Below, piece after piece: positions 5,827 through 29,255 of a DNA stretch of 64,000 nucleotides. The position numbers and the translations under genes are program-made. The notes under the pieces are model-generated. The model was given only the letters and a program-made list of their open reading frames with translations, had not been told where the DNA came from and searched no databases. The DNA is from Candidatus Saccharimonadia bacterium (lineage in GTDB: Bacteria; Patescibacteriota; Saccharimonadia; Saccharimonadales; 2-12-FULL-41-12): assembly GCA_963717365.1 (NCBI GenBank), contig OY970327.1:523599-587598 (forward strand), read 5' to 3'. Numbering within the stretch: position 1 is the stretch's first letter; every line of letters starts with the position of its first letter.

Positions 5827-7356
5827 CTAGCGATCGCCGGGTTGACGTAACTGGGTCACGAATAGTCCGGATTTAGCGGCTTGTGCCGACGCGTCAACGT
5901 TATAGACGACTTCATAGTCCTGATTAAATAACAGCGGTGAAGCAACTTGGGCTGTTACTAATTCCTGCTGATTTGAACTATCAAAATCAAAGATGATCAC
6001 TTTGCCACCAGACCGTCCAGAGAGACGGTGGCCATCCATCCAAGTAACCGGACTGGCGGGATCAAAAGCCGCCCCAACATCATAACGGAAGGTCTGATCG
6101 TACTCGGCGTCATAAATTTCAAAATGTTGGGCGCTCTGCGCTGCGATAAAGCGAGTATTCTGAGAGAAGGACACCGCTGTAAGCGGGCTGGTTGCCTTTA
6201 GTATTGCTATGGGGGTTACTAAGCTGCCGTCACGCTTTTGCAGAGTGGCTACGGGGTCTTCGTAAATATATGTTTTTTGTTCTGTTTCCGAACCAACCAC
6301 AACATACCACCGGTTATCGTAGCGGGCAATCTCCAGCATAAGAGGTCCGGTAGCTATTTCTCTAATCGTATAGCTGTCATTGCCTTGCTTCAGCGTTACT
6401 CTCTGGTTAGCGCCGCCATTAGCTGGGGTTGCGTATAGCAACGTATTGTCATCATGAGTCTTATAAGCGGTTACTTCAGCTGCTACTGGCGTAATTGTTT
6501 TGTTTGCTGAAGCGGCCTGCAACACACCGCCTTGTTGCTCATATATATACCATTGATCAAATTTTTTATCACGCAGCGTTATCTTAGTAGGGTTCTGGCC
6601 GAGCAGACGGTTGATATTTATTGAAGTAGCCGGTTGATCCCTCGAAATTACTACAAACTCATAGCTATTGGCAAAACTGTGTTTAACCAATATGTGACGG
6701 TTGTCAGTAGACCATTCAACTGGCTCTATTAAATGTCCGCCTTCAGCAGCCGTAAACAAATCAGCAGGCACGCCAAACTGCCGTAGGCGCGGATCCTTTG
6801 AGGGACCATCTAAACTATTAAGATCATATTCTAAGTAATTGGTAAGGGAACCAGTTTGTCCAACCAATACCCACCGCCGATCAGGACTTTGCGTTACTAC
6901 CGTCGGAGCTACAGCAAAAGCCTGGATTTCCCGCCGTTCCAGCGTTGAAGGCAGTAAAAGCGGATAATTAAATCGCTCCACTTCGCCGCCATTAAGCGTA
7001 AAGCTTCGCTGCCATTGGCGGTAGCCGTCTTTTTCAATTGTTACGTTATAGTCGCCTGACGGAAGTGCAAAACGGTTATTGGTTCGATCTTTTTGTTCCT
7101 GGCCGTTAAATCGCACGGTTGCGCCGTCAGGGGCACTATCAATGAAAACCAGGCCATTTTGAATTACTTCACCGGTCTTGCGGTCTACATCAAAGCCGTA
7201 GGCACTAAATACTAAAATAGCCGATGTGGTCAGAATAACGGCAGCCATCAAGCCGTAGCCGATGAACAAACGAATCTTGTGATGGCGTTTAGCCTTTGGG
7301 TCAAGAAAATCCATAGATCTAGACTCTATCTTATACCATAAATAAGACTTTCGCAT
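5827..7356 (-). CDS. PEGA domain-containing membrane protein
   Basis: TM helix followed by a PEGA-like segment (SAPDGATVRFNGQ...LPSGDYNVTIEKDGYRQW). An alternative start is the ATG at 7314 (MDFLDPK). Confidence 0.55.
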   Translation of the reverse strand: MRKSYLWYKIESRSMDFLDPKAKRHHKIRLFIGYGLMAAVILTTSAILVFSAYGFDVDRKTGEVIQNGLVFIDSAPDGATVRFNGQEQKDRTNNRFALPSGDYNVTIEKDGYRQWQRSFTLNGGEVERFNYPLLLPSTLERREIQAFAVAPTVVTQSPDRRWVLVGQTGSLTNYLEYDLNSLDGPSKDPRLRQFGVPADLFTAAEGGHLIEPVEWSTDNRHILVKHSFANSYEFVVISRDQPATSININRLLGQNPTKITLRDKKFDQWYIYEQQGGVLQAASANKTITPVAAEVTAYKTHDDNTLLYATPANGGANQRVTLKQGNDSYTIREIATGPLMLEIARYDNRWYVVVGSETEQKTYIYEDPVATLQKRDGSLVTPIAILKATSPLTAVSFSQNTRFIAAQSAQHFEIYDAEYDQTFRYDVGAAFDPASPVTWMDGHRLSGRSGGKVIIFDFDSSNQQELVTAQVASPLLFNQDYEVVYNVDASAQAAKSGLFVTQLRQPGDR

Positions 7357-7484: not shown

Positions 7485-8585
7485 TTGGCTACAGCAAAAA
7501 CAACAATCGAGCTTAACGGTAAGCTTTATGATGCCCGCACCGGTAAAATTATTGGGGAAGGCAGCAGCATCGCTCCACTAGCTCCAATCAAACATCAGGG
7601 TGGCAATATACTTGATGGCGTGTCTCGACCACAGAAAACAACTCACTCGGCCATTAATCTAACTGCTGTCCCCAAACCAAAACCGTTAGTTTCTCGTGGT
7701 GCGCCCAAGCACTCTACTACCAAGCTACAGAAGTCTAGTACTTTGATGCGGCCGGCTGTTAAAAAACCAAAAGCCATTACCGGGACTGCTACGGTAGTCT
7801 CCCATCAAAACTCTGTTGTTAAAAAAGAAGATCCGGCGCGGCAAGCCCGAGCAGCGAATGTACCACGTAGTGGTCAAATTCAACGCTTCAACCATCAGGA
7901 TGGTCAGCAGCACACCATTATTAAAAAGCAGGCGCCACTTACCGTTGCGGTGCCTACCGGCCATAATCATAATATAGTTGAGAAGGCCGCTCATCTAGCC
8001 GCCCCAGCCGAAGCCCAGGTAGTCCATTCGGTAGAAGTTATAGAAGAAAGCTTGCGCAATGCATCTGCCCACTTGCAAACCTTTGAAAGCCATATAGCCA
8101 GTGCCAGCTTTTGGCAACGTGTCGGTTTTAAAAATAAGATTGCTAACCTTGCAACGTTAAGTTTTGCCGGTTTCTTATTAATTGGATTTTTCGCTTATCA
8201 AAATGCGCCAAATATTGAAATGCGGATCGCTGCTGCCCGTTCCGGTGTATCGGCTAGTCTTCCTGGCTATAGTCCGGCAGGATTTAGCGCCATGCACGGC
8301 ATTGACTCAGATCCGGGTAAAGTCACCGTAACCTTTAAGTCCACCACAAATGACAAACAATTTCGTATTACCCAGCAAGCTAGTAATTGGTCGAGTGATT
8401 CCTTACTAAGTAACCATGTTCTAGCTAGCAATGCTCCTTATCAAACGTATCAAGATGAAGGTAAAACCGTATATATTTATGACAATTCAAACGCTACCTG
8501 GGTTAATGGTGGCGTCTGGTACCAAGTTGACGGCAACGCTAGTCTCACTAGCGATCAACTACTTCGCATCGCCAATAGTCTCTAA
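7485..8585 (+). CDS. membrane protein with a DUF4367-like C-terminal domain
   Basis: TTG start preceded by GAGGG. It has a central TM helix. The C-terminus ...VWYQVDGNASLTSDQLLRIANSL resembles DUF4367 ends. Confidence 0.45.
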   Translation: MATAKTTIELNGKLYDARTGKIIGEGSSIAPLAPIKHQGGNILDGVSRPQKTTHSAINLTAVPKPKPLVSRGAPKHSTTKLQKSSTLMRPAVKKPKAITGTATVVSHQNSVVKKEDPARQARAANVPRSGQIQRFNHQDGQQHTIIKKQAPLTVAVPTGHNHNIVEKAAHLAAPAEAQVVHSVEVIEESLRNASAHLQTFESHIASASFWQRVGFKNKIANLATLSFAGFLLIGFFAYQNAPNIEMRIAAARSGVSASLPGYSPAGFSAMHGIDSDPGKVTVTFKSTTNDKQFRITQQASNWSSDSLLSNHVLASNAPYQTYQDEGKTVYIYDNSNATWVNGGVWYQVDGNASLTSDQLLRIANSL

Positions 8586-18626: not shown

Positions 18627-18701
18627 TGGTGACCTCACCGGGAATCGAACCCGGATTGCCAGGATGAGAACCTGGTGTCCTAACCGTTAGACGATGAGGC
18701 C
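18627..18701 (-). tRNA. tRNA-Glu (anticodon CTC), CCA encoded
   Basis: Minus-sense sequence GGCCTCATCGTCTAACGGTTAGGACACCAGGTTCTCATCCTGGCAATCCGGGTTCGATTCCCGGTGAGGTCACCA. Confidence 0.9.
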
Positions 18702-20235: not shown

Positions 20236-21624
20236 ATGGCTAAAATAATGCTCGTCGAAGACGATAACAATCTACGTGAAATTTACGGTGCCCGCCTTCA
20301 GGCGGAAGGACATGAAATTGTTGCCGCCCGTGATGGGGAAGAAGCCCTAGCACTTGCAGTCAAGGAAAAACCTGAACTGATCATATCTGATGTTATGATG
20401 CCCCGAATCAGCGGTTTTGACATGCTGGATATCTTACGAAATGCTCCTGAAACCAAGAACACTAAGGTAATAATGATGACTGCCTTATCCCAAGCAGAAG
20501 ACAAATCCCGCGCTGATAAACTTGGTGCCGACCGTTACCTTGTTAAATCGCAAGTTACGCTTGAAGATGTCGCCAGTGTCGTCAGTGAAGTATTAAATGG
20601 TCCTAACGATGGAACGGCAGTTAATCCAGCCGATACCTCAGAGACATTGCCAACAGTCAGTCAGTCAGTCCCAGCAGCTGTACCTACGCCAGCTCCAGCT
20701 CCGGCTGTAACCGCCGCACCAGCCCCGCAAGCACAACCCGAAGTACAACAACAAACACCAACCCCTCAGCCAGCTCCAGTCGCACCAGTTGACCCCGCTC
20801 TAGCTTTAGCCGAGCCACAGCAATCAACAGAACCAGTTTCTGCACCCCTGCCACCGGCATCCCCTGAGATCATACCTGTTACTGCACCGCCGTCCGATCA
20901 ACCTGCCACTACTACCCCCGTTGCAGATGATGATGCAGCTACCAAAACCGACAATACGCTTCAGGCTATAGCTGCCGAATTAGCACACGCCAATCTTGAC
21001 GATCCTGCTGTGTCTTCCGTCGTCGTTACTGAAACTGCTACTCAAAGCCCTGATGAGACGCCTAAATGTCAACCAACGCCGGCTATAGCTGTAGAAATGC
21101 CCCCGCAAACTGACTCGGCACCGCCGCCAGCCAGCACGGACCAGCCAACACCAACTACTGAAACTGAGCAACCGACTAACGACTTATTTGCTGGCTCTAG
21201 CTTGGCTGAAGTGCTAGCCACCGAGGAAAAAGGTTCAACCGGCTCATTGCCTTCAGCTGCACCAGCTTCTCCGCCAGCCGACCAATCATCCGAACCAACC
21301 GCGACACAGCCAGACACACAACAGCCAGTAGGTGAAGAAACAACTGCGAATAATGTGATACAGGCTAGTCAGTCTGCCATCGCGGCAGCTCCACCTCCTG
21401 AACCAGAGCCAACGGCTGATGAACCTGCCCAAGATGATGATTCATCTTCCACTAACAATAGCGGCATGAAAGTTATTAATCCGATTGGCGACCCATTGGC
21501 TTCACCTGATCTTGATAAACTATTGGCCGATGAAGAACGTAAGCTTGCTGTTGAAAACCCGGTCGCCAGTACCGTTATCACGCCAGAGAAAAAATCTGAC
21601 GAACTCAATAATATTTCTCTGTAG
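20236..21624 (+). CDS. response regulator receiver fused to a roughly 340-aa Pro/Ala/Thr/Gln-rich low-complexity tail
   Basis: Receiver motifs MLVEDD, LIISDVMMP and YLVKS in the first 120 aa or so. The remainder is PAPAP/TPTP-type sequence that ends in a short structured-looking segment (MKVINPIGDPLASPDLDKLL...). Confidence 0.85.
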   Translation: MAKIMLVEDDNNLREIYGARLQAEGHEIVAARDGEEALALAVKEKPELIISDVMMPRISGFDMLDILRNAPETKNTKVIMMTALSQAEDKSRADKLGADRYLVKSQVTLEDVASVVSEVLNGPNDGTAVNPADTSETLPTVSQSVPAAVPTPAPAPAVTAAPAPQAQPEVQQQTPTPQPAPVAPVDPALALAEPQQSTEPVSAPLPPASPEIIPVTAPPSDQPATTTPVADDDAATKTDNTLQAIAAELAHANLDDPAVSSVVVTETATQSPDETPKCQPTPAIAVEMPPQTDSAPPPASTDQPTPTTETEQPTNDLFAGSSLAEVLATEEKGSTGSLPSAAPASPPADQSSEPTATQPDTQQPVGEETTANNVIQASQSAIAAAPPPEPEPTADEPAQDDDSSSTNNSGMKVINPIGDPLASPDLDKLLADEERKLAVENPVASTVITPEKKSDELNNISL

Positions 21625-24226: not shown

Positions 24227-24868
24227 ATGGGACTATTCGCTAAACGACCGATTCTGGATTCAAACGCTCCACTCTACTCGCTGGGGCTAAATCGAACTAT
24301 TCTGATCGTAGGTCTGGGTAACCCTGGCAAGGAGTATGATGGCACTCGTCATAATATCGGTTTTGCCGTACTGGATAACTTTGCCATGAAACAGGGATTT
24401 GATAATTGGGTAGCAAAAAAGGATATGCATAGCGCCCAAGTAAGTCACACGATTGGAAATACCCGCGTTATCTTATGTAAGCCTAACACCTTTATGAATG
24501 ACAGCGGAAGAGCAGTAAAAGCCACGCAGCATTTTTATAAAATAGACAACAACGAAACGCTGGTGGTCTATGACGAACTCGATATAGAATTTGGCCACAT
24601 CCGTACTCGCGTCGGTGGCAGTGACGCTGGTCATAATGGCGTAAAGTCAGTTACGAACGCTTGCGGCGAGACCTACGGCAGAGTGCGCATAGGTATTGGC
24701 CCTAAGAAGCCGCAGCAAATCGATACTGCCGATTTTGTGCTTGCTCCTTTTAGTAAGACGCACCAAAAAGACATGCCTGGACTGATGCAGGAAACCAACG
24801 CTATTTTAAGCGAATATGCGCATAGTCGCGATAAACTACTCGCCGAGACGCGAAGCTTCATCATTTAG
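24227..24868 (+). CDS. pth: peptidyl-tRNA hydrolase
   Basis: LIVGLGNPGKEYDGTRHNIGF and GHNGVKS motifs. It has an N-terminal extension of about 24 aa. Confidence 0.9.
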   Translation: MGLFAKRPILDSNAPLYSLGLNRTILIVGLGNPGKEYDGTRHNIGFAVLDNFAMKQGFDNWVAKKDMHSAQVSHTIGNTRVILCKPNTFMNDSGRAVKATQHFYKIDNNETLVVYDELDIEFGHIRTRVGGSDAGHNGVKSVTNACGETYGRVRIGIGPKKPQQIDTADFVLAPFSKTHQKDMPGLMQETNAILSEYAHSRDKLLAETRSFII

Positions 24869-25189
24869 CTGCACTTGCCGGTGCTCTACTGGCAGTTCTG
24901 CCGCTCCATAACCGTGCAGTAACACTCGATTGCCAACCCAATGCATCATTCTTAGCTTAGCTTCGCCCTGAGCTAATTGTTTTTCATAACACAGAATTGT
25001 CTGGCGACTCGGTGGTCGATAACGTTCAAGTAGAGCTGTCTTATATTCTTGGATATCCTTCTCGGCAGCCGTTGTCATATTACAAATTACTTCCAGGTCA
25101 GCTGGAAACTTACGTCTACCTTTCATACCGGTAGCCTTTGCTTCTCGCCGCGAGAGCTTAAATTCGGCTTTTTCTTCGTCAAATTTCAT
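24836..25189 (-). CDS. hypothetical protein
   Basis: The ORF is open to 25201, and the ATG at 25189 (MKFDEEK) is also possible. Its 3' end overlaps the pth 3' end by 33 nt in a convergent arrangement. Confidence 0.4.
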   Translation of the reverse strand: MKFDEEKAEFKLSRREAKATGMKGRRKFPADLEVICNMTTAAEKDIQEYKTALLERYRPPSRQTILCYEKQLAQGEAKLRMMHWVGNRVLLHGYGAAELPVEHRQVQLNDEASRLGE

Positions 25190-25508
25190 TGTCAATCTCA
25201 TTTTGATGCATGTCTAATATTCTAGTATGCGCGTTATCGATCGTCACGTGGACTGCTTCGGTCATAATAGTACATCTCTGATGTAACGTTGCCATGCTCT
25301 CCTGCAAATAAGTGTCATATTCCTCGGTGATCCTAGAGTGATACTCGTTATAAAAACGTTTGGTTGCTTCATATTTATTAAGTGACTTTAGCCAGTTCTC
25401 CACTAGATAGCGGCCATGTAGATATATTTGTGGCTGCAACCCGGACTGCTCTTGTTGTTCTTGGCTTAATACCATGACGTTTTTTCGGGTAGCATCGTAC
25501 TGATTCAT
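25179..25508 (-). CDS. hypothetical helical protein
   Basis: 109-aa ORF. It has a leaderless-type promoter directly upstream. Confidence 0.45.
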   Translation of the reverse strand: MNQYDATRKNVMVLSQEQQEQSGLQPQIYLHGRYLVENWLKSLNKYEATKRFYNEYHSRITEEYDTYLQESMATLHQRCTIMTEAVHVTIDNAHTRILDMHQNEIDNEI

Positions 25509-25516
25509 GACTTAGT

Positions 25517-25545
25517 ATTAAAACTTATATCGTTGGAATTGTCAA
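25517..25545 (-). promoter_or_regulatory. promoter TTGACA-17-TTTAAT, 8 nt upstream of the ATG at 25508
   Basis: In minus sense: TTGACA (25545-25540), a 17-nt spacer, TTTAAT (25522-25517), then ACTAAGTC and ATG. Confidence 0.55.
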
Positions 25546-25956
25546 TTATAAATAAACGAGCCTCCAGAGGGGGTGGGCACCGCTGGAGGCTCGTTTTACA
25601 CCCTTCAACCCACCCTTGCGAAGCGTCATTACCAGCATATAACATGCCACGGTACGCGCCTCCCAGCCCGGTGAAGAGCAGGGAATACCTGAATACTCGC
25701 ATTGAATAGGGTACTGTTTTGCCTGCACGAAGCAGTAAAACAATAGTTAAAGGGATTAGTTTGTTTTAGAGCCCTTAAAAAACAGTGTGGGATTTCATCC
25801 TAAGATTTAATCCCTATTTAATAAAGAAACGCTTTACTAGATGTGGAGGGTAACAACATAAAGTGTGCGCCGGAGACAAGCTCGCTCTCTAAAACAATCT
25901 AACATTGGGGTATGGAAGGTACTAAACCCATATAAATAAATTATATGAGCTTACAA
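25546..25956 (-). ncRNA. candidate structured non-coding RNA of unknown class (about 400 nt)
   Basis: ORF-free region bounded by its own promoter (25963-25991) and terminator (25554-25596). The core is GC-rich and has several long-range complementary segments. Confidence 0.4.
25554..25596 (-). terminator. intrinsic terminator (14-bp perfect stem)
   Basis: AAACGAGCCTCCAG (25554-25567) pairs with CTGGAGGCTCGTTT (25583-25596). The minus-sense tail is UUAUUUAUAAUU. It could also act on the plus strand (UUUUAC tail). Confidence 0.6.
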
Positions 25957-25962
25957 ATTGCT

Positions 25963-25991
25963 ATTCTAGCAAAAATATTCTCTTATGTCAA
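25963..25991 (-). promoter_or_regulatory. near-consensus promoter TTGACA-17-TAGAAT pointing into the ORF-free region
   Basis: In minus sense: TTGACA (25991-25986), a 17-nt spacer, TAGAAT (25968-25963). Confidence 0.55.
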
Positions 25992-26006
25992 TACCTTTTC
26001 ACTAAT

Positions 26007-26885
26007 TTGTCAAAAATGCAAGAATTCAATATTATAAACATTAGCGTCACTGACCCTTTGTTTCCGGAGGATTTTTCTCGGGTTCAACCAATAGTTAAAC
26101 AATTGTACGCAATAGGAAATAAGAAATTATTGTCAGATAATCGTTGCCTTGGAATAGTTGGTTCGCGTAAACCAACATCTTACGGACGACAATCAACAAC
26201 AGACTTTGCCCGAGCTGCAGCTAACGCCGGTATAACCGTCATAAGCGGATTAGCCTTTGGAGTAGACAGTATTGCTCACCAAACAGCACTTAATTACCAT
26301 GGGAAAACGATAGCCATATTACCGGGCGGGCTTAAGAATATATATCCTGCAAGCCATACCTCGCTTGCAGAACGTATCGTGAATAATAAAGGTTTGCTTA
26401 TTAGCGAGTACTACGATGAAATTTCCCCTATGAAATACTATTTTATACGCAGAAATCGATTAATTGCAGCCTTGTCTCATACACTGCTGGTTACTGAGGC
26501 AGGAGTAAAGAGCGGCAGCCGGCATACCGCTGACTTCGCAAGAGATCTGGGTAAAAACATATGCATTATTCCAGGAAATATAACCAGCCCTTTAAGTGTA
26601 GGGACTAATAATCTAATGAAAGAAGGGGCAATGCCAGTGACGGAACCAAGTGATTTGCTTACAATACTTGGTGTTCATGAAAATTTAATGAAGCCGAGGT
26701 ATAGTGCAGAGAACAGCTACGAAGAGGTTCTTATCGAGCTGTTAGCTCGTCAAAATTTGAGTAGCGAGGCATTATTGGAAGCCTCAGAGTTCGAAGTTTC
26801 ACTGTTTAATACCCATCTGACGATGCTGGAAATAAAAGGTGCAATTGAACAAACGGCGGCTAGAAGCTGGAGACTTGCAAAATGA
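26007..26885 (+). CDS. dprA: DNA-processing protein DprA
   Basis: GSRKPTSYGRQSTTDFARAAANAGITVISGLAFGVDSIAHQ Rossmann-like core. The start is TTG at 26007 or ATG at 26016. Confidence 0.85.
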   Translation: MSKMQEFNIINISVTDPLFPEDFSRVQPIVKQLYAIGNKKLLSDNRCLGIVGSRKPTSYGRQSTTDFARAAANAGITVISGLAFGVDSIAHQTALNYHGKTIAILPGGLKNIYPASHTSLAERIVNNKGLLISEYYDEISPMKYYFIRRNRLIAALSHTLLVTEAGVKSGSRHTADFARDLGKNICIIPGNITSPLSVGTNNLMKEGAMPVTEPSDLLTILGVHENLMKPRYSAENSYEEVLIELLARQNLSSEALLEASEFEVSLFNTHLTMLEIKGAIEQTAARSWRLAK

Positions 26886-26963
26886 AATTAAACCAAGTAG
26901 GCTATCAACTCGTACCAACAAGCGGTATACTAAGCGTTATCACAATGGGTCCATTCTTTATAT

Positions 26964-29255
26964 ATGTCTAAAAATCTCGTAATTGTAGAAAGTCCGGCTA
27001 AAGCTAAGACGATTGAGAAATTTCTCGGGAAAGATTTTACCGTTAAAAGCAGCTTTGGCCACATTCGTGATCTCCCAAAAAAGGGCATCGCAATTGATAA
27101 AGAAAACAATTTCGAACCTACCTATGAAATTGCTGCTGATAAAAAAAAGGTAGTCAGTGAACTCAAGAAAGCGGCTAAAGCAGCCGATCAAGTCTGGTTA
27201 GCGAGTGATGAAGACCGTGAAGGGGAAGCTATCGCCTGGCATTTATGTCATGCGCTTGGTCTTAAGCCCGAGACCACAAAGCGTATTGTTTTTCATGAGA
27301 TTACTAAAACCGCTATTGACGCCGCAATAAAATCTCCGCGCACTGTTGATATTAATTTAGTTGACGCCCAGCAGGCCCGTCGTGTGCTTGATCGGCTTGT
27401 GGGCTACGAACTCAGTCCTGTCCTTTGGAAAAAAGTACAGACTGGCCTAAGTGCAGGCCGGGTGCAGTCAGTAGCCGTACGTCTCATAGTCGAACGAGAA
27501 CGCGAGATAACCAGTTTTACACCAAATTCGCATTTTAAAATCAGCGCGCACTTTCTAGTTGATGGTCAAGAACTTAAAGCCGACCTGCCAAAGTCGTTAC
27601 CGGACGAAAAAGCTGCCCTTGAATTTTTAAATGGAGTTATAGGTAGTAAGTACGAAGTAGAATCGTTGAGCACCAAGCCTGGTACACGTAATCCTAGCCC
27701 GCCGTTTATCACCAGTAGTTTGCAACAAGAAGCTGCGTCCAAACTTGGGTATAGTGTCAAACAGACGATGACACTAGCCCAACGTCTCTATGAGAGCGGA
27801 TATATAACTTATATGCGTACTGATAGCTTAAGCTTGTCACAGAGCTCTTTAAATGCCATGCAGGCGTTTATTACTAAGGAGTATGGTAGCAAGTACCATA
27901 CACTGCGAACTTATAAGACCAAAAGCGCCAGTGCGCAGGAAGCACATGAGGCCATCCGACCTACAGATGTCGGTAGAACTAGCCTGGGCAATGACGAACA
28001 GCAAAAAAAATTGTACGGCCTAATTTGGCGCCGGGCAGTGGCCAGCCAGATGGCGAGCGCCCAACTGGAGCGCAGCGAAATTACCGTAGCAATCAGTGGT
28101 CGTAAAGAAAAACTAGTGGCCAAAGGAGAGATCTTATCCTTTGATGGTTTCCTTAAAGTTTATGGCGGCGGTAAAGATGACACTATTCTGCCGAAAGTCA
28201 GCCAAGGTGACAAGCTTGAGTTAGACCATATCCATGCGCTCGAATCGTTTGATCGTCCACCAGCTCGTTACTCTGAAGCGTCTTTGGTACGTAAACTCGA
28301 AGAACTCGGTATCGGCCGCCCAAGTACTTATGCACCAACTATTTCAACAATTCAGACTCGCAACTACGTTGAAAAGCGTGATTCAGACGGCTTAGAGCGC
28401 AAACTACGCAATATCCGTCTTAAAAACGATACTATAGAACAAGAGATCACCACCGAGATAACAGGGGTAGAACGAAACAAACTCATTCCAACTCATCTTG
28501 CCGATATGGCAACTGACTTTCTTACCAAGCACTTCGCTCCAATCGTTGATTACGCATTTACTGCTCGTGCCGAGGAAGATTTTGATAAAATTGCCGAAGG
28601 CAAGTACCAGTGGCAAGACAAAATAAGTGATTTTTATAAGGACTTTCAGCCGCTAATAGAAAAGTCAGCCGATGTCAGCCGTGTGGAGACTTCTCAGGCC
28701 CGCGAACTAGGAATTGATCCCAAGTCCGGTAAAACGGTGGTAGCCCGCTATGGTCGTTTTGGCCCAATGCTTCAAAAAGGTGAGACAGAGGGTGATGATA
28801 AGCCGATTTTCGCGCCGCTTCCAGAAGGAACTACGCTGATGACAGTAACATTTGAACAGGCAATGGAAATGTTTAAGTTGCCGCGCACCGTCGGTACTAC
28901 TAAGGATGGTGAAGAAATAAAAGCCAATCTCGGCCGTTTTGGTCCCTATATACAGATCGGTAAGCTATATGTATCAATTAAGCCCCTTGACCCCCTTGCA
29001 ATCACCGAAGCAGAAGCCCTAGCCCTCTACTCGGAAAAACTAGTCAAAGAAAAAGACAAGTATATAAAGCAGTTCAAGAGCGGTATTAATATCGTCAATG
29101 GCCCCTACGGCCCGTATATCACCGATGGTAAAAAGAACGCTCGTATTCCTAAGTCAACCGACCCAGCTACCATTACCGAAGCTGATGCTAAGGATATGCT
29201 AGAAAAAGCACCGGCACGTAAAAAACGCCCGTTTAAGCGCAAAGCCAAGTCATAA
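26964..29255 (+). CDS. topA: DNA topoisomerase I
   Basis: A Toprim N-terminus (LVIVESPAKAKTIEKFLG), the catalytic-Tyr region GYITYMRTDS, and a basic C-terminal tail. Confidence 0.95.
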   Translation: MSKNLVIVESPAKAKTIEKFLGKDFTVKSSFGHIRDLPKKGIAIDKENNFEPTYEIAADKKKVVSELKKAAKAADQVWLASDEDREGEAIAWHLCHALGLKPETTKRIVFHEITKTAIDAAIKSPRTVDINLVDAQQARRVLDRLVGYELSPVLWKKVQTGLSAGRVQSVAVRLIVEREREITSFTPNSHFKISAHFLVDGQELKADLPKSLPDEKAALEFLNGVIGSKYEVESLSTKPGTRNPSPPFITSSLQQEAASKLGYSVKQTMTLAQRLYESGYITYMRTDSLSLSQSSLNAMQAFITKEYGSKYHTLRTYKTKSASAQEAHEAIRPTDVGRTSLGNDEQQKKLYGLIWRRAVASQMASAQLERSEITVAISGRKEKLVAKGEILSFDGFLKVYGGGKDDTILPKVSQGDKLELDHIHALESFDRPPARYSEASLVRKLEELGIGRPSTYAPTISTIQTRNYVEKRDSDGLERKLRNIRLKNDTIEQEITTEITGVERNKLIPTHLADMATDFLTKHFAPIVDYAFTARAEEDFDKIAEGKYQWQDKISDFYKDFQPLIEKSADVSRVETSQARELGIDPKSGKTVVARYGRFGPMLQKGETEGDDKPIFAPLPEGTTLMTVTFEQAMEMFKLPRTVGTTKDGEEIKANLGRFGPYIQIGKLYVSIKPLDPLAITEAEALALYSEKLVKEKDKYIKQFKSGINIVNGPYGPYITDGKKNARIPKSTDPATITEADAKDMLEKAPARKKRPFKRKAKS

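Follow-up and report, generated by a model that had tools for sequence, protein, structure and literature searches.

The window analysed here is a stretch of 64,000 nucleotides from a Candidatus Saccharimonadia bacterium (contig OY970327.1, positions 523,599 to 587,598), and the element in question lies on its minus strand, upstream of and divergent from dprA. We found that this element belongs to a family of real, multi-domain structured RNA genes, predicted to be transcribed independently, that spans the Saccharibacteria (Saccharimonadales) and lies outside Rfam 15, and such a conserved element explains the "empty" gap of 0.4 kb that recurs upstream of dprA in these genomes. This family of large structured RNAs is a new one, and it has its 3' hairpin module in common with phages. 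Nowhere is the RNA more conserved than in the apical 17 nt of this terminal hairpin, which is more than a terminator; its apex is an autonomous, portable module which sits on unrelated, compensating stems in many phage genomes. We suggest, with a probability of roughly 0.55, that this folded RNA of Saccharibacteria acts in trans, that the autonomous apex serves as a recognition surface, and that phages engage the partner which reads it. An earlier reading of the letters of the window, called the original prediction below, had proposed a structured RNA of about 400 nt, transcribed on its own and of unknown class, a proposal which is supported by the promoter, the terminator, the covariation and the negative Rfam searches.

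A conserved RNA gene upstream of dprA

The analysis covered the 64-kb window and, for each relative, about 12 kb of sequence. The relatives of TopA, with 59-87% identity, were all from metagenome-assembled genomes of Candidatus Saccharibacteria / Saccharimonadales. The spacer upstream of dprA carries a homolog of the RNA in 14 TopA-relative genomes, with the orientation kept, and the comparison of such spacers, which the original prediction had proposed as a check, revealed a homologous element with a conserved promoter and terminator. A scan of metagenomes by the exact 19-mer AGCGGUGCCCACCCCCUCU, taken from the terminal hairpin, gave at least 120 loci. Among the matches listed, about 110 metagenome contigs carry the whole RNA, the motif belongs to the Saccharibacteria RNA in all 120 except 8, Pth is found at 87 loci and DprA at 83, and the gene order is kept in about 85 loci. 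In this order, der-pth is convergent with the RNA and dprA-topA is divergent from it.

The predicted minus-strand promoter, consisting of TTGACA, a 17-nt spacer and TAGAAT, is present and is the top promoter-like site within 24500-27000, with 11 of 12 matches plus the TG extension. The pattern TTGAC.-N15-19-TGCTAnAAT occurs 283-560 nt 5' of the loop motif in 88 loci among the matches listed, and the loci without it are mostly incomplete contigs or carry a slightly altered -10 box. About 400 nt downstream, where a stem-type terminator had been proposed, the minus-strand arms 25596-25580 and 25570-25554 are 94% complementary over 17 nt and are followed by a U-rich tail that extends to 25546; the stem covaries. 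The fold of the minus-strand RNA has a free energy of −139.6 kcal/mol (z = −5.98 against shuffles), while the plus strand reaches z = −3.81. The interior of the element had been described as GC-rich, which is true of the 3' third of the RNA (0.50-0.56) but not of its 5' two thirds (0.34-0.39), which lie under the window mean of 0.455.

The RNA is about 405 nt long in the window and about 280-560 nt long in the family. Six near-invariant sequence blocks occur in a fixed order with expansion segments of 58 to more than 200 nt between them, and about 100 nucleotides are invariant in the family. Insertions and deletions of any length between the conserved blocks indicate a structured RNA with expansion segments and not a coding sequence. 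This is in agreement with the original prediction that there is no credible open reading frame (ORF) in the region: the mechanical ORFs of 58-65 aa are without conservation in relatives, the longest ATG-started ORF per homolog has a median of 38 aa (86 homologs), and conservation tracks helices and loops, not codons. The element could also be regarded as a cis-regulatory leader or attenuator, or as a small protein-coding gene, since the terminator-like hairpin stands 5' of a same-strand ORF (25508-25179) and ORFs of 65 aa overlap the region. However, this downstream ORF and its neighbor are missing in relatives, in which the gene downstream is pth, directly next to the RNA and convergent with it, so the RNA is not a cis-regulatory leader; with the pattern of conservation described above, we see next to no chance for either form of this explanation. 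The locus has the properties of an independent noncoding RNA (ncRNA) gene, namely its own promoter and terminator, conservation across species and covarying helices.

Architecture, covariation and known RNA classes

The RNA strand is the minus strand of the window, and the consensus fold was calculated by RNAalifold on an anchored alignment of 74 sequences. The consensus consists of the 5' hairpin Pa, helix P2 with an extension, helix P4 and the terminal hairpin, and the same elements are already present in the unconstrained minimum free energy (MFE) fold of the window sequence (Table 1).

Table 1. Features of the RNA gene in window coordinates
Feature	Coordinates	Strand	Evidence or description
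Promoter	25963..25991	-	-35 box TTGACA at 25991-25986, 17-nt spacer, TG-extended -10 box TGcTAGAAT at 25971-25963
Predicted transcript, about 405 nt	25550..25956	-	Family profile hidden Markov model aligns to 25962-25550, E = 4e-62
Pa, 5' hairpin with GUAAG...CUUAC-type base and variable top	25923..25953	-	MFE and RNAalifold
ss1, conserved single-stranded C-rich segment GyACCUU..A..CCCC	25904..25922	-	G[UC]ACCUU at about +32 in nearly all members
GUUAG and 5' strand of P2 (GUUAGAU UGUUUUAGAG)	25887..25903	-	Complementarity search, covariation, RNAalifold
Px hairpin with invariant 11-nt loop UGUUACCCUCC (25855-25845)	25841..25859	-	Block GUUGUUACCCUCCAC near-invariant
3' strand of P2, CUCUAAAACAA, and CUAAU	25755..25771	-	P2 pairing count
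5' strand of P4, CCCUUUAAC	25746..25754	-	Pairs with GUUGAAGGG at 25609-25601
Variable domain inside P4	25615..25745	-	Covarying pairs s7:180-225, 182-223, 184-220
GGUGGG (25614-25609) and 3' strand of P4, GUUGAAGGG (25609-25601)	25599..25614	-	GGUGGG complementary to CCCACC of the terminal loop
Terminal hairpin	25554..25596	-	12-bp variable stem (25596-25585/25565-25554) carrying the 19-nt AGCGGUGCCCACCCCCUCU (25584-25566) with core GCGGUGCCCACCCCCUC

In the pairing tests, 0 of 500 shuffles reached the observed value for P4, P2, Px and the terminal hairpin alike. P4 is paired in 100% of cases compared with 96.9% after shuffling (62 distinct sequences), with changes from C-G to G-C at both ends, from U.G to C-G or U-A, and from C-G to U-A at two pairs. 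P2, formed by UUGUUUUAGAG (25897-25887) with CUCUAAAACAA (25771-25761), closes a three-way junction with Px and a variable hairpin, Py; it is paired in 92.3% against 82.2% shuffled, has compensatory changes at 8 or more positions, and its extension is paired in 97.7%. This helix is the long-range pairing of TTGTTTTAGAG (25761-25771) with CTCTAAAACAA (25887-25897) that had been read from the letters, and the covariation analysis suggested at that time shows compensatory changes in relatives for this main long-range helix. The stem of Px is paired in 72.0% compared with 61.6% shuffled, and its closing stem varies between AAGU/ACUU, AUGU/ACAU and CACGU/ACGUG. For the terminal hairpin, the values are 95.5% and 65.2%, and the stem covaries strongly among distinct family sequences. 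The stem of Pa is variable in sequence and paired in all members, with a covarying pair at s0:13-s0:38.

The architecture varies between lineages. A small hairpin, Pb (CUAAC/GUUAG), is present in most relatives but not in this lineage, in which GUUAG (25903-25899) is paired to the downstream CUAAU and thereby lengthens P2. In relatives, the domain enclosed by P4 measures 58-145 nt and frequently forms a four-way junction closed by AGCGA/UCGCU, and many relatives carry an additional GGAGA...UCUCC hairpin before the terminal hairpin. GGUGGG is retained in most members, and a short-form subfamily (L007, L010, L105 and L121) is without GGUGG and keeps the loop. A mutual-information scan recovered the known helices and one helix in the variable domain, and found no partner for the invariant single strands. 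The original prediction contained a second long-range pairing, of AGGGATTA (25751-25758) with TAATCCCT (25808-25815), which would interleave with P2. The pairing exists in the sequence, but one of its arms lies in an insertion of Py that is found only in the window and is missing from the closest relatives (L013 and L001), and its second arm is part of the conserved elements P4 and CUAAU. Because one of the interleaving pairings is not conserved, the proposed pseudoknot or mutually exclusive folds are not part of the family architecture.

Large inserts were also seen at fixed sites of the RNA: about 190 nt in Pb (L004, L009), about 200 nt 5' of CCCUUUAAC of P4 (L050, L134), and 150-226 nt 5' of the terminal hairpin (L029, L131), with some insert sites common to pairs of loci. 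These could be structured add-ons or inserted elements. The D-arm of the tRNA-Glu at 18627-18701 (UCUAACGGUUAGGA) resembles the UCUAAC-loop-GUUAGA of the family Pb, which is probably a coincidence.

A search of the whole window against Rfam 15 at gathering thresholds found no family at the RNA, only two tRNAs elsewhere. At E ≤ 10, a listing across 4227 families in which RF00010 scores of about 5-15 bits would not appear, the search that the original prediction had called for gave only terminator-like noise in 25400-26100 and nothing over the element in 20 homologs and 13 phage or other hairpin loci. RF00010, RF00011 and the models of transfer-messenger RNA (tmRNA), signal recognition particle (SRP) RNA and 6S RNA (RF00013) had no match in the window region or in the 20 homologs at this threshold. 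The hallmarks of tmRNA, RNase P and SRP RNA had not been seen by eye either, an impression that motif tests on 86 members of the family and ARAGORN confirm. A tmRNA was considered for its size and its pth neighbor and was rejected: ARAGORN found none in the window and none in 60 related loci, the T-arm/T-loop motif GGUUCGAAUCC occurs exactly in 0/86 members and with at most one mismatch in 1/86, and a 3' UCCACCA occurs exactly in 0/86. The tmRNA 5' end GGGGYUGA is matched with at most one mismatch in 84/86 members; these matches, which were not located, are most likely the GGGUUGA of the 3' strand of P4. The RNase P motifs CR-I (GAGGAAAGUCC) and CR-V (ACAGAA..CGGCUUA) and the SRP domain IV / helix 8 motif (GGAAGCAGCCA) are found in 0/86 members at up to two mismatches, and none of the six invariant blocks is like CR-I or CR-V. 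There is no end-to-end helix of the P1 type in the RNAalifold or MFE fold, in which the 3' end is a self-contained hairpin, and the single rod with a central bubble of 6S RNA is replaced by two independent long-range helices and a three-way junction in an RNA of 280-560 nt.

It could nevertheless be proposed that the element is an extremely diverged housekeeping RNA, with RNase P RNA as the most plausible candidate and 6S, SRP RNA and tmRNA as less plausible ones. Its size, single copy, strong promoter, clade-wide conservation, long-range P4 around a variable domain and expansion segments are like those of RNase P, and RNase P RNAs of the Candidate Phyla Radiation (CPR) are reported to be missed by standard models. 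With listings that end at E ≤ 10, a very weak RF00010 score is possible; for CPR genomes, the RF00010 thresholds have been lowered to 5 bits (Lui et al. 2021, PMC8172020). However, an RF00010-type RNase P RNA was reported in the same study in all of the circular CPR genomes, including two of Saccharimonadia. Together with the negative Rfam, ARAGORN and motif results, the ends that no helix joins, and a terminal hairpin shared with phages that has no counterpart in those RNAs, this makes a housekeeping RNA improbable in our view.

Further likenesses were considered and discarded. Those to RNase P (GGGUUGAAGGGUG to J12/13, and GCGGU..CCCCUC to CR-III) occur out of order and out of context, and the test for CR-I and CR-V was negative. 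The others are short and stand on the wrong strand, in the wrong context or with the wrong partners, and have no Rfam support: the SRP Alu domain (5' UGUAAG), helix II-III of 5S rRNA (resembled by the loop), a T-box (reverse complement of the loop resembling GGGUGGUACCGCG), a Cas9 repeat (GUUUUAGAG), group II domain V (AGC triad and tetraloop) and a telomerase-like template (CUAACCC). Literature searches on RNase P, tmRNA, ncRNA and structured RNA of Saccharibacteria or CPR, and for the motif string, gave no description of the RNA.

The hairpin apex and its copies in phage DNA

The 17-nt core GCGGUGCCCACCCCCUC is exact in all 14 homologs that were obtained through TopA, and the full 19-nt loop in 13 of them; neither sequence was used as a query for this set. 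The pair adjoining the core covaries (A-U, G-C, C-G, U-A), so the truly invariant part is 17 nt long. In a scan with three wildcard positions, stem-flanked variants occurred at core positions 8-10 only, with the tetraloops GCUC, GCCA, GCCU and GCAA. The apex is likely to fold with a GCCC tetraloop on a 3-bp GGU/ACC helix, below which follow a C-rich 1x4 internal loop and a closing G-C pair, and the confinement of the variants to positions 8-10 fits a tetraloop on such a helix. There is a single copy of the module in the 64 kb of the window, so it is not a general type of terminator.

In the 8 metagenome matches listed that are not Saccharibacteria RNA, the loop is present and the rest of the RNA is absent. 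Viral stretches of IMG/VR contain the exact 19-mer in 25 cases and the 17-mer in 53, and just 1 of these 53 (L162) has the whole RNA gene. In the viral set, 47 of 54 core copies are flanked by a stem of at least 6 bp. The viral hairpins (n = 48) have 88.3% paired cells compared with 46.7% after shuffling and a covariation score of 1.02 compared with 0.21 for shuffled and 0.14-0.22 for slid controls, and two-sided changes were found at 10 of 11 pairs. Phage and host stems have a median of 10 differences over 22 flank positions. Since the stems of the phages are unrelated to those of the host, the hairpins are not attachment-site (att) copies of the host gene. Sequences complementary to the loop are not enriched in the phage flanks, which suggests that the loop acts in trans or folds on itself, and a local pseudoknot as the cause of loop invariance was rejected on the same ground.

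The phage identity of the stretches is indicated by genes for major head protein and endolysin beside the hairpin. The hairpin lies between a small gene on the portal side and the scaffold and capsid genes, at the end of the lysis cassette, about 10 nt after a tRNA gene, at an mRNA 5' end immediately behind a -10 box, or in small RNAs (sRNAs), about 70-100 nt long, that have a promoter and a U tract of their own. The U tract is absent from many of the copies, which sit in 5' untranslated regions (UTRs), between genes or inside ORFs. Several of the phage sRNAs, built of a variable 5' part, the hairpin and the U tract, have motifs like CACCUU or CUCCUU, and strong AAGGAG sites are found on the phage genes adjoining the hairpin. 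The module was not found in 50,697 GenBank phages, and the closest capsid homologs of the module-bearing phages have just about 30% identity.

It has to be considered whether the copies arose from events at the DNA level, that is, as phage attP sites, as host fragments captured from the 3' end of a stable RNA, or as a small mobile palindromic element. The 3' ends of stable-RNA genes such as those of tRNA and tmRNA are classic integration sites, L162 ends with the whole RNA gene, and two copies lie in-frame inside ORFs. However, the phage stems differ from all host stems and are still self-complementary, which an att copy would not need; instead of adjoining integrases, the hairpins occur within head and lysis modules or 5' UTRs or behind a tRNA gene; and core direct repeats flanking the inserts were not found in the host loci. 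We therefore regard this origin as very unlikely.

Some of the individual loci deserve description. L162 (IMG/VR, 37,957 nt) has the complete RNA gene at 7972-8370, at the contig end and with no dprA upstream, and an inverted second copy of the core at 6863-6879 with a U-A closing pair. The genes upstream of the RNA encode what we take, from their translations, to be Dam-/Dcm-like methyltransferases, an FtsK-like ATPase and a RecT-like protein, and the contig may be a prophage or mobile element which carries or adjoins the RNA gene. The metagenome locus L036, of about 90 nt, consists of TTGCAA-N17-TATAAT, a 5' hairpin, GCACCUUGAUCC (like the host strand GCACCUUAUA..CCC), the module and a U tract; it looks like a miniature RNA, as if the middle of the host RNA had been deleted, and its GGGCACC is complementary to 7 bases of the loop. 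In a group of head modules (L146, L153, L155, L175, L179, L188, L189 and L191), the hairpin begins 1-3 nt past a UGA stop codon, and 3' of the module there is another small conserved hairpin, ACCAGCUUUGCUGGCC, with a strong AAGGAG site for the scaffold gene after it; the two hairpins may form a larger composite RNA element. In L149 and L171, the core and its flanking inverted repeat are in-frame in proline-rich ORFs, and both are translated as G-A-V-P-T-P-S-P.

Possible function, known systems and the locus

We suggest that the RNA is a stable folded molecule, alone or in a ribonucleoprotein (RNP), which acts in trans and is neither a leader nor an mRNA. The hairpin apex would be the recognition surface for a conserved trans-acting partner, which would most likely be a protein, or else the GGUGG and GyACC segments of the RNA itself, and phages would put the hairpin in their transcripts to engage or titrate this partner. 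The occurrence of the apex on both sides suggests that host and phages may use one recognition signal.

The segments of the RNA itself were considered for the following reason. GGUGG, beside P4, and GyACC, in ss1, jointly complement 10 contiguous bases of the loop, GGUGCCCACC, where y stands for C or U, either of which can pair with G. GUACC of ss1 may thus pair with the complementary GGUGC of the terminal loop, as we infer from the complementarity. The original prediction had likewise noted that the terminator loop GGGTGGG is complementary to CCCACCC (25609-25615). The complementarity does exist, and most members retain GGUGGG, but the two strands are unproven as a pair because the loop never varies; as the phage copies of the loop have no such partner, the complementarity cannot explain the invariance of the loop. 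Based on these segments, it could be proposed that the RNA is an interface between host and phage, in which GGUGG and GyACC form a receptor for GGUGCCCACC, the RNA's own hairpin docks in cis and phage hairpins dock in trans, and docking serves phage hijacking or host sensing and defense. The two segments are among the most conserved blocks, phage hairpins have no local partner for the loop, and the module is found in many phage lineages. However, the basis of this proposal is the complementarity of invariant sequences, and the loop may fold on itself, judging from the variant positions. The short forms keep the loop without GGUGG, which indicates that the GGUGG contact is not the sole constraint on it, and a vertically inherited, syntenic single-copy gene is atypical of defense systems. 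We consider such an interface rather unlikely.

Another possibility is a base-pairing regulatory RNA or sponge, whose C-rich, anti-Shine-Dalgarno-like elements CACCUU, ACCCUCC and CCCCCUCU would bind purine-rich mRNA sites, for example, in phage mRNAs led by a Shine-Dalgarno (SD) sequence, and whose 3' hairpin would be a chaperone-binding handle common to the phage sRNAs. This would fit the three invariant unpaired C-rich elements, which have no conserved G-rich partners, the promoter-bearing phage sRNAs, several of which have CACCUU- or CUCCUU-like motifs, and AAGGAG on neighboring phage genes. However, SD sequences are rare in the window (GGAG upstream of 3 of 47 genes, counted as 47 long ORFs), so there would be few host targets, and it is unlikely that the RNA serves the host as a general anti-SD RNA. 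For a seed-type sRNA, it would also be unusual to have about 100 invariant nucleotides and an elaborate conserved fold throughout a class-level clade, and targets were not identified. A sponge is unlikely on this evidence, if not as doubtful as the housekeeping RNAs discussed above.

In its most far-reaching form, the trans-acting reading would make the RNA and its apex an RNA-recognition system of a new kind, in which a clade-wide RNP or ribozyme of Saccharibacteria reads the apex in cis, through GGUGG and GyACC or through a protein, and phages exploit or evade it by planting the apex in mRNAs, tRNA trailers and sRNAs. We put this forward tentatively, as a possibility with a minor share of the probability. 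If true, it would be a new kind of host-phage RNA mimicry and would provide a sequence tag that ties uncultivated phages to CPR hosts.

Several points weigh against the trans-acting RNA with an apex read by a partner, which we prefer. Both ends of the transcript are predictions, for which the -10 box served at the 5' side and the U tract at the 3' side. The invariance of the apex is partly given by construction beyond the 14 TopA-derived homologs and the three-position wildcard scan, because exact motifs were searched. The pairings proposed for invariant blocks are unproven, as they rely on complementarity and offer no variation for covariation tests. The link between the phages and Saccharibacteria as their putative hosts is drawn from the distribution of the matches listed, the similar GC content of phage stretches and host loci, and L162. 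The partner is a putative one, as is any biochemical activity.

We compared the RNA with known systems. It is like OLE, GOLLD, ROOL, raiA and HEARO/omega RNA, large and ornate bacterial ncRNAs whose functions are obscure or have begun to emerge only lately, in being long, multi-domain, strongly conserved and lineage-restricted, with expansion segments, covarying helices and many junction and loop nucleotides that do not vary; a link to phages also exists for GOLLD and ROOL. Unlike this group, it has no Rfam 15 match and no partner gene (IscB, TnpB, Oap), and it has a fixed housekeeping neighborhood. To our knowledge, the reuse of the terminal hairpin alone by phages has not been described for any of them. 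With bacterial RNase P RNA (RF00010/RF00011), the RNA has in common the size, the single gene, a long-range helix round a variable domain and the lineage-specific gain and loss of helices, whereas the P4 with CR-I/CR-V, P1, the CR-II/III module and an Rfam match are missing. Portable hairpins that phages have copied from their hosts include tRNA T-arms, phage pseudo-ToxI and RNA anti-CRISPRs that mimic CRISPR repeats. The apex resembles these in its compensating free stems, its fixed apical part and its occurrence in phage transcripts as well as in a host RNA, and this suggests that a binding site is mimicked, although the 17-nt sequence matches none of them and the host RNA is not a tRNA, CRISPR array or toxin-antitoxin RNA. 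Conserved nucleotides within a U-tract hairpin, as in the host RNA and several phage sRNAs, are also known from the terminator-embedded HMP-PP/thiS aptamer. In contrast to that type, many phage copies have no U tract, and there is no coherent gene association like that of a riboswitch.

In the window, the RNA is surrounded by der and pth on the plus strand, two small minus-strand ORFs, and the divergent dprA-topA. The -35 box of its promoter is only about 15-25 nt from the annotated start of dprA (TTG 26007 or ATG 26016; 25986-26016), so the divergent promoters must overlap or stand back to back; the spacing is equally tight in relatives. The two ORFs between the terminator and pth encode 109 aa (25179-25508, minus strand) and 121 aa (24836-25201, minus strand) and have no PHROG match. 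A -35 box for the next gene had been predicted directly at the terminator, and TTGACA is indeed found at 25545-25540, but the ORF behind it is not conserved. Both ORFs are essentially restricted to the window, with just a weak match of L001 to the 121-aa ORF among relatives, and look as if they had been inserted at the RNA gene's 3' end in this lineage alone. Many genes of the window have a -10-like box (TATAAT, TATACT, TAnAAT) about 6-12 nt 5' of the start, for example, at 26964, 29492 and 25508, which suggests that mRNAs with no leader or a very short one may be widespread in the window. Another ORF, at 20236-21624 on the plus strand, appears from its translation to combine a response-regulator receiver domain with a low-complexity tail, about 330 aa long, in which Pro, Thr, Ala and Gln are abundant; such an architecture would be unusual.

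Saccharibacteria have genomes of about 1 Mb, in which spare DNA is scarce. An RNA of about 280-560 nt that is kept at one locus throughout the clade in such small genomes, with about 100 invariant nucleotides, is therefore likely to have a central role. The family adds a large structured RNA class, so far unannotated, to the CPR, in which RNA biology has hardly been explored. Its 17-nt apex could be used as bait for the partner, and the sharing of this apex with phages is a probable case of phage-host RNA mimicry. The apex is also a practical marker for Saccharibacteria loci and for proposing hosts of orphan phage contigs.

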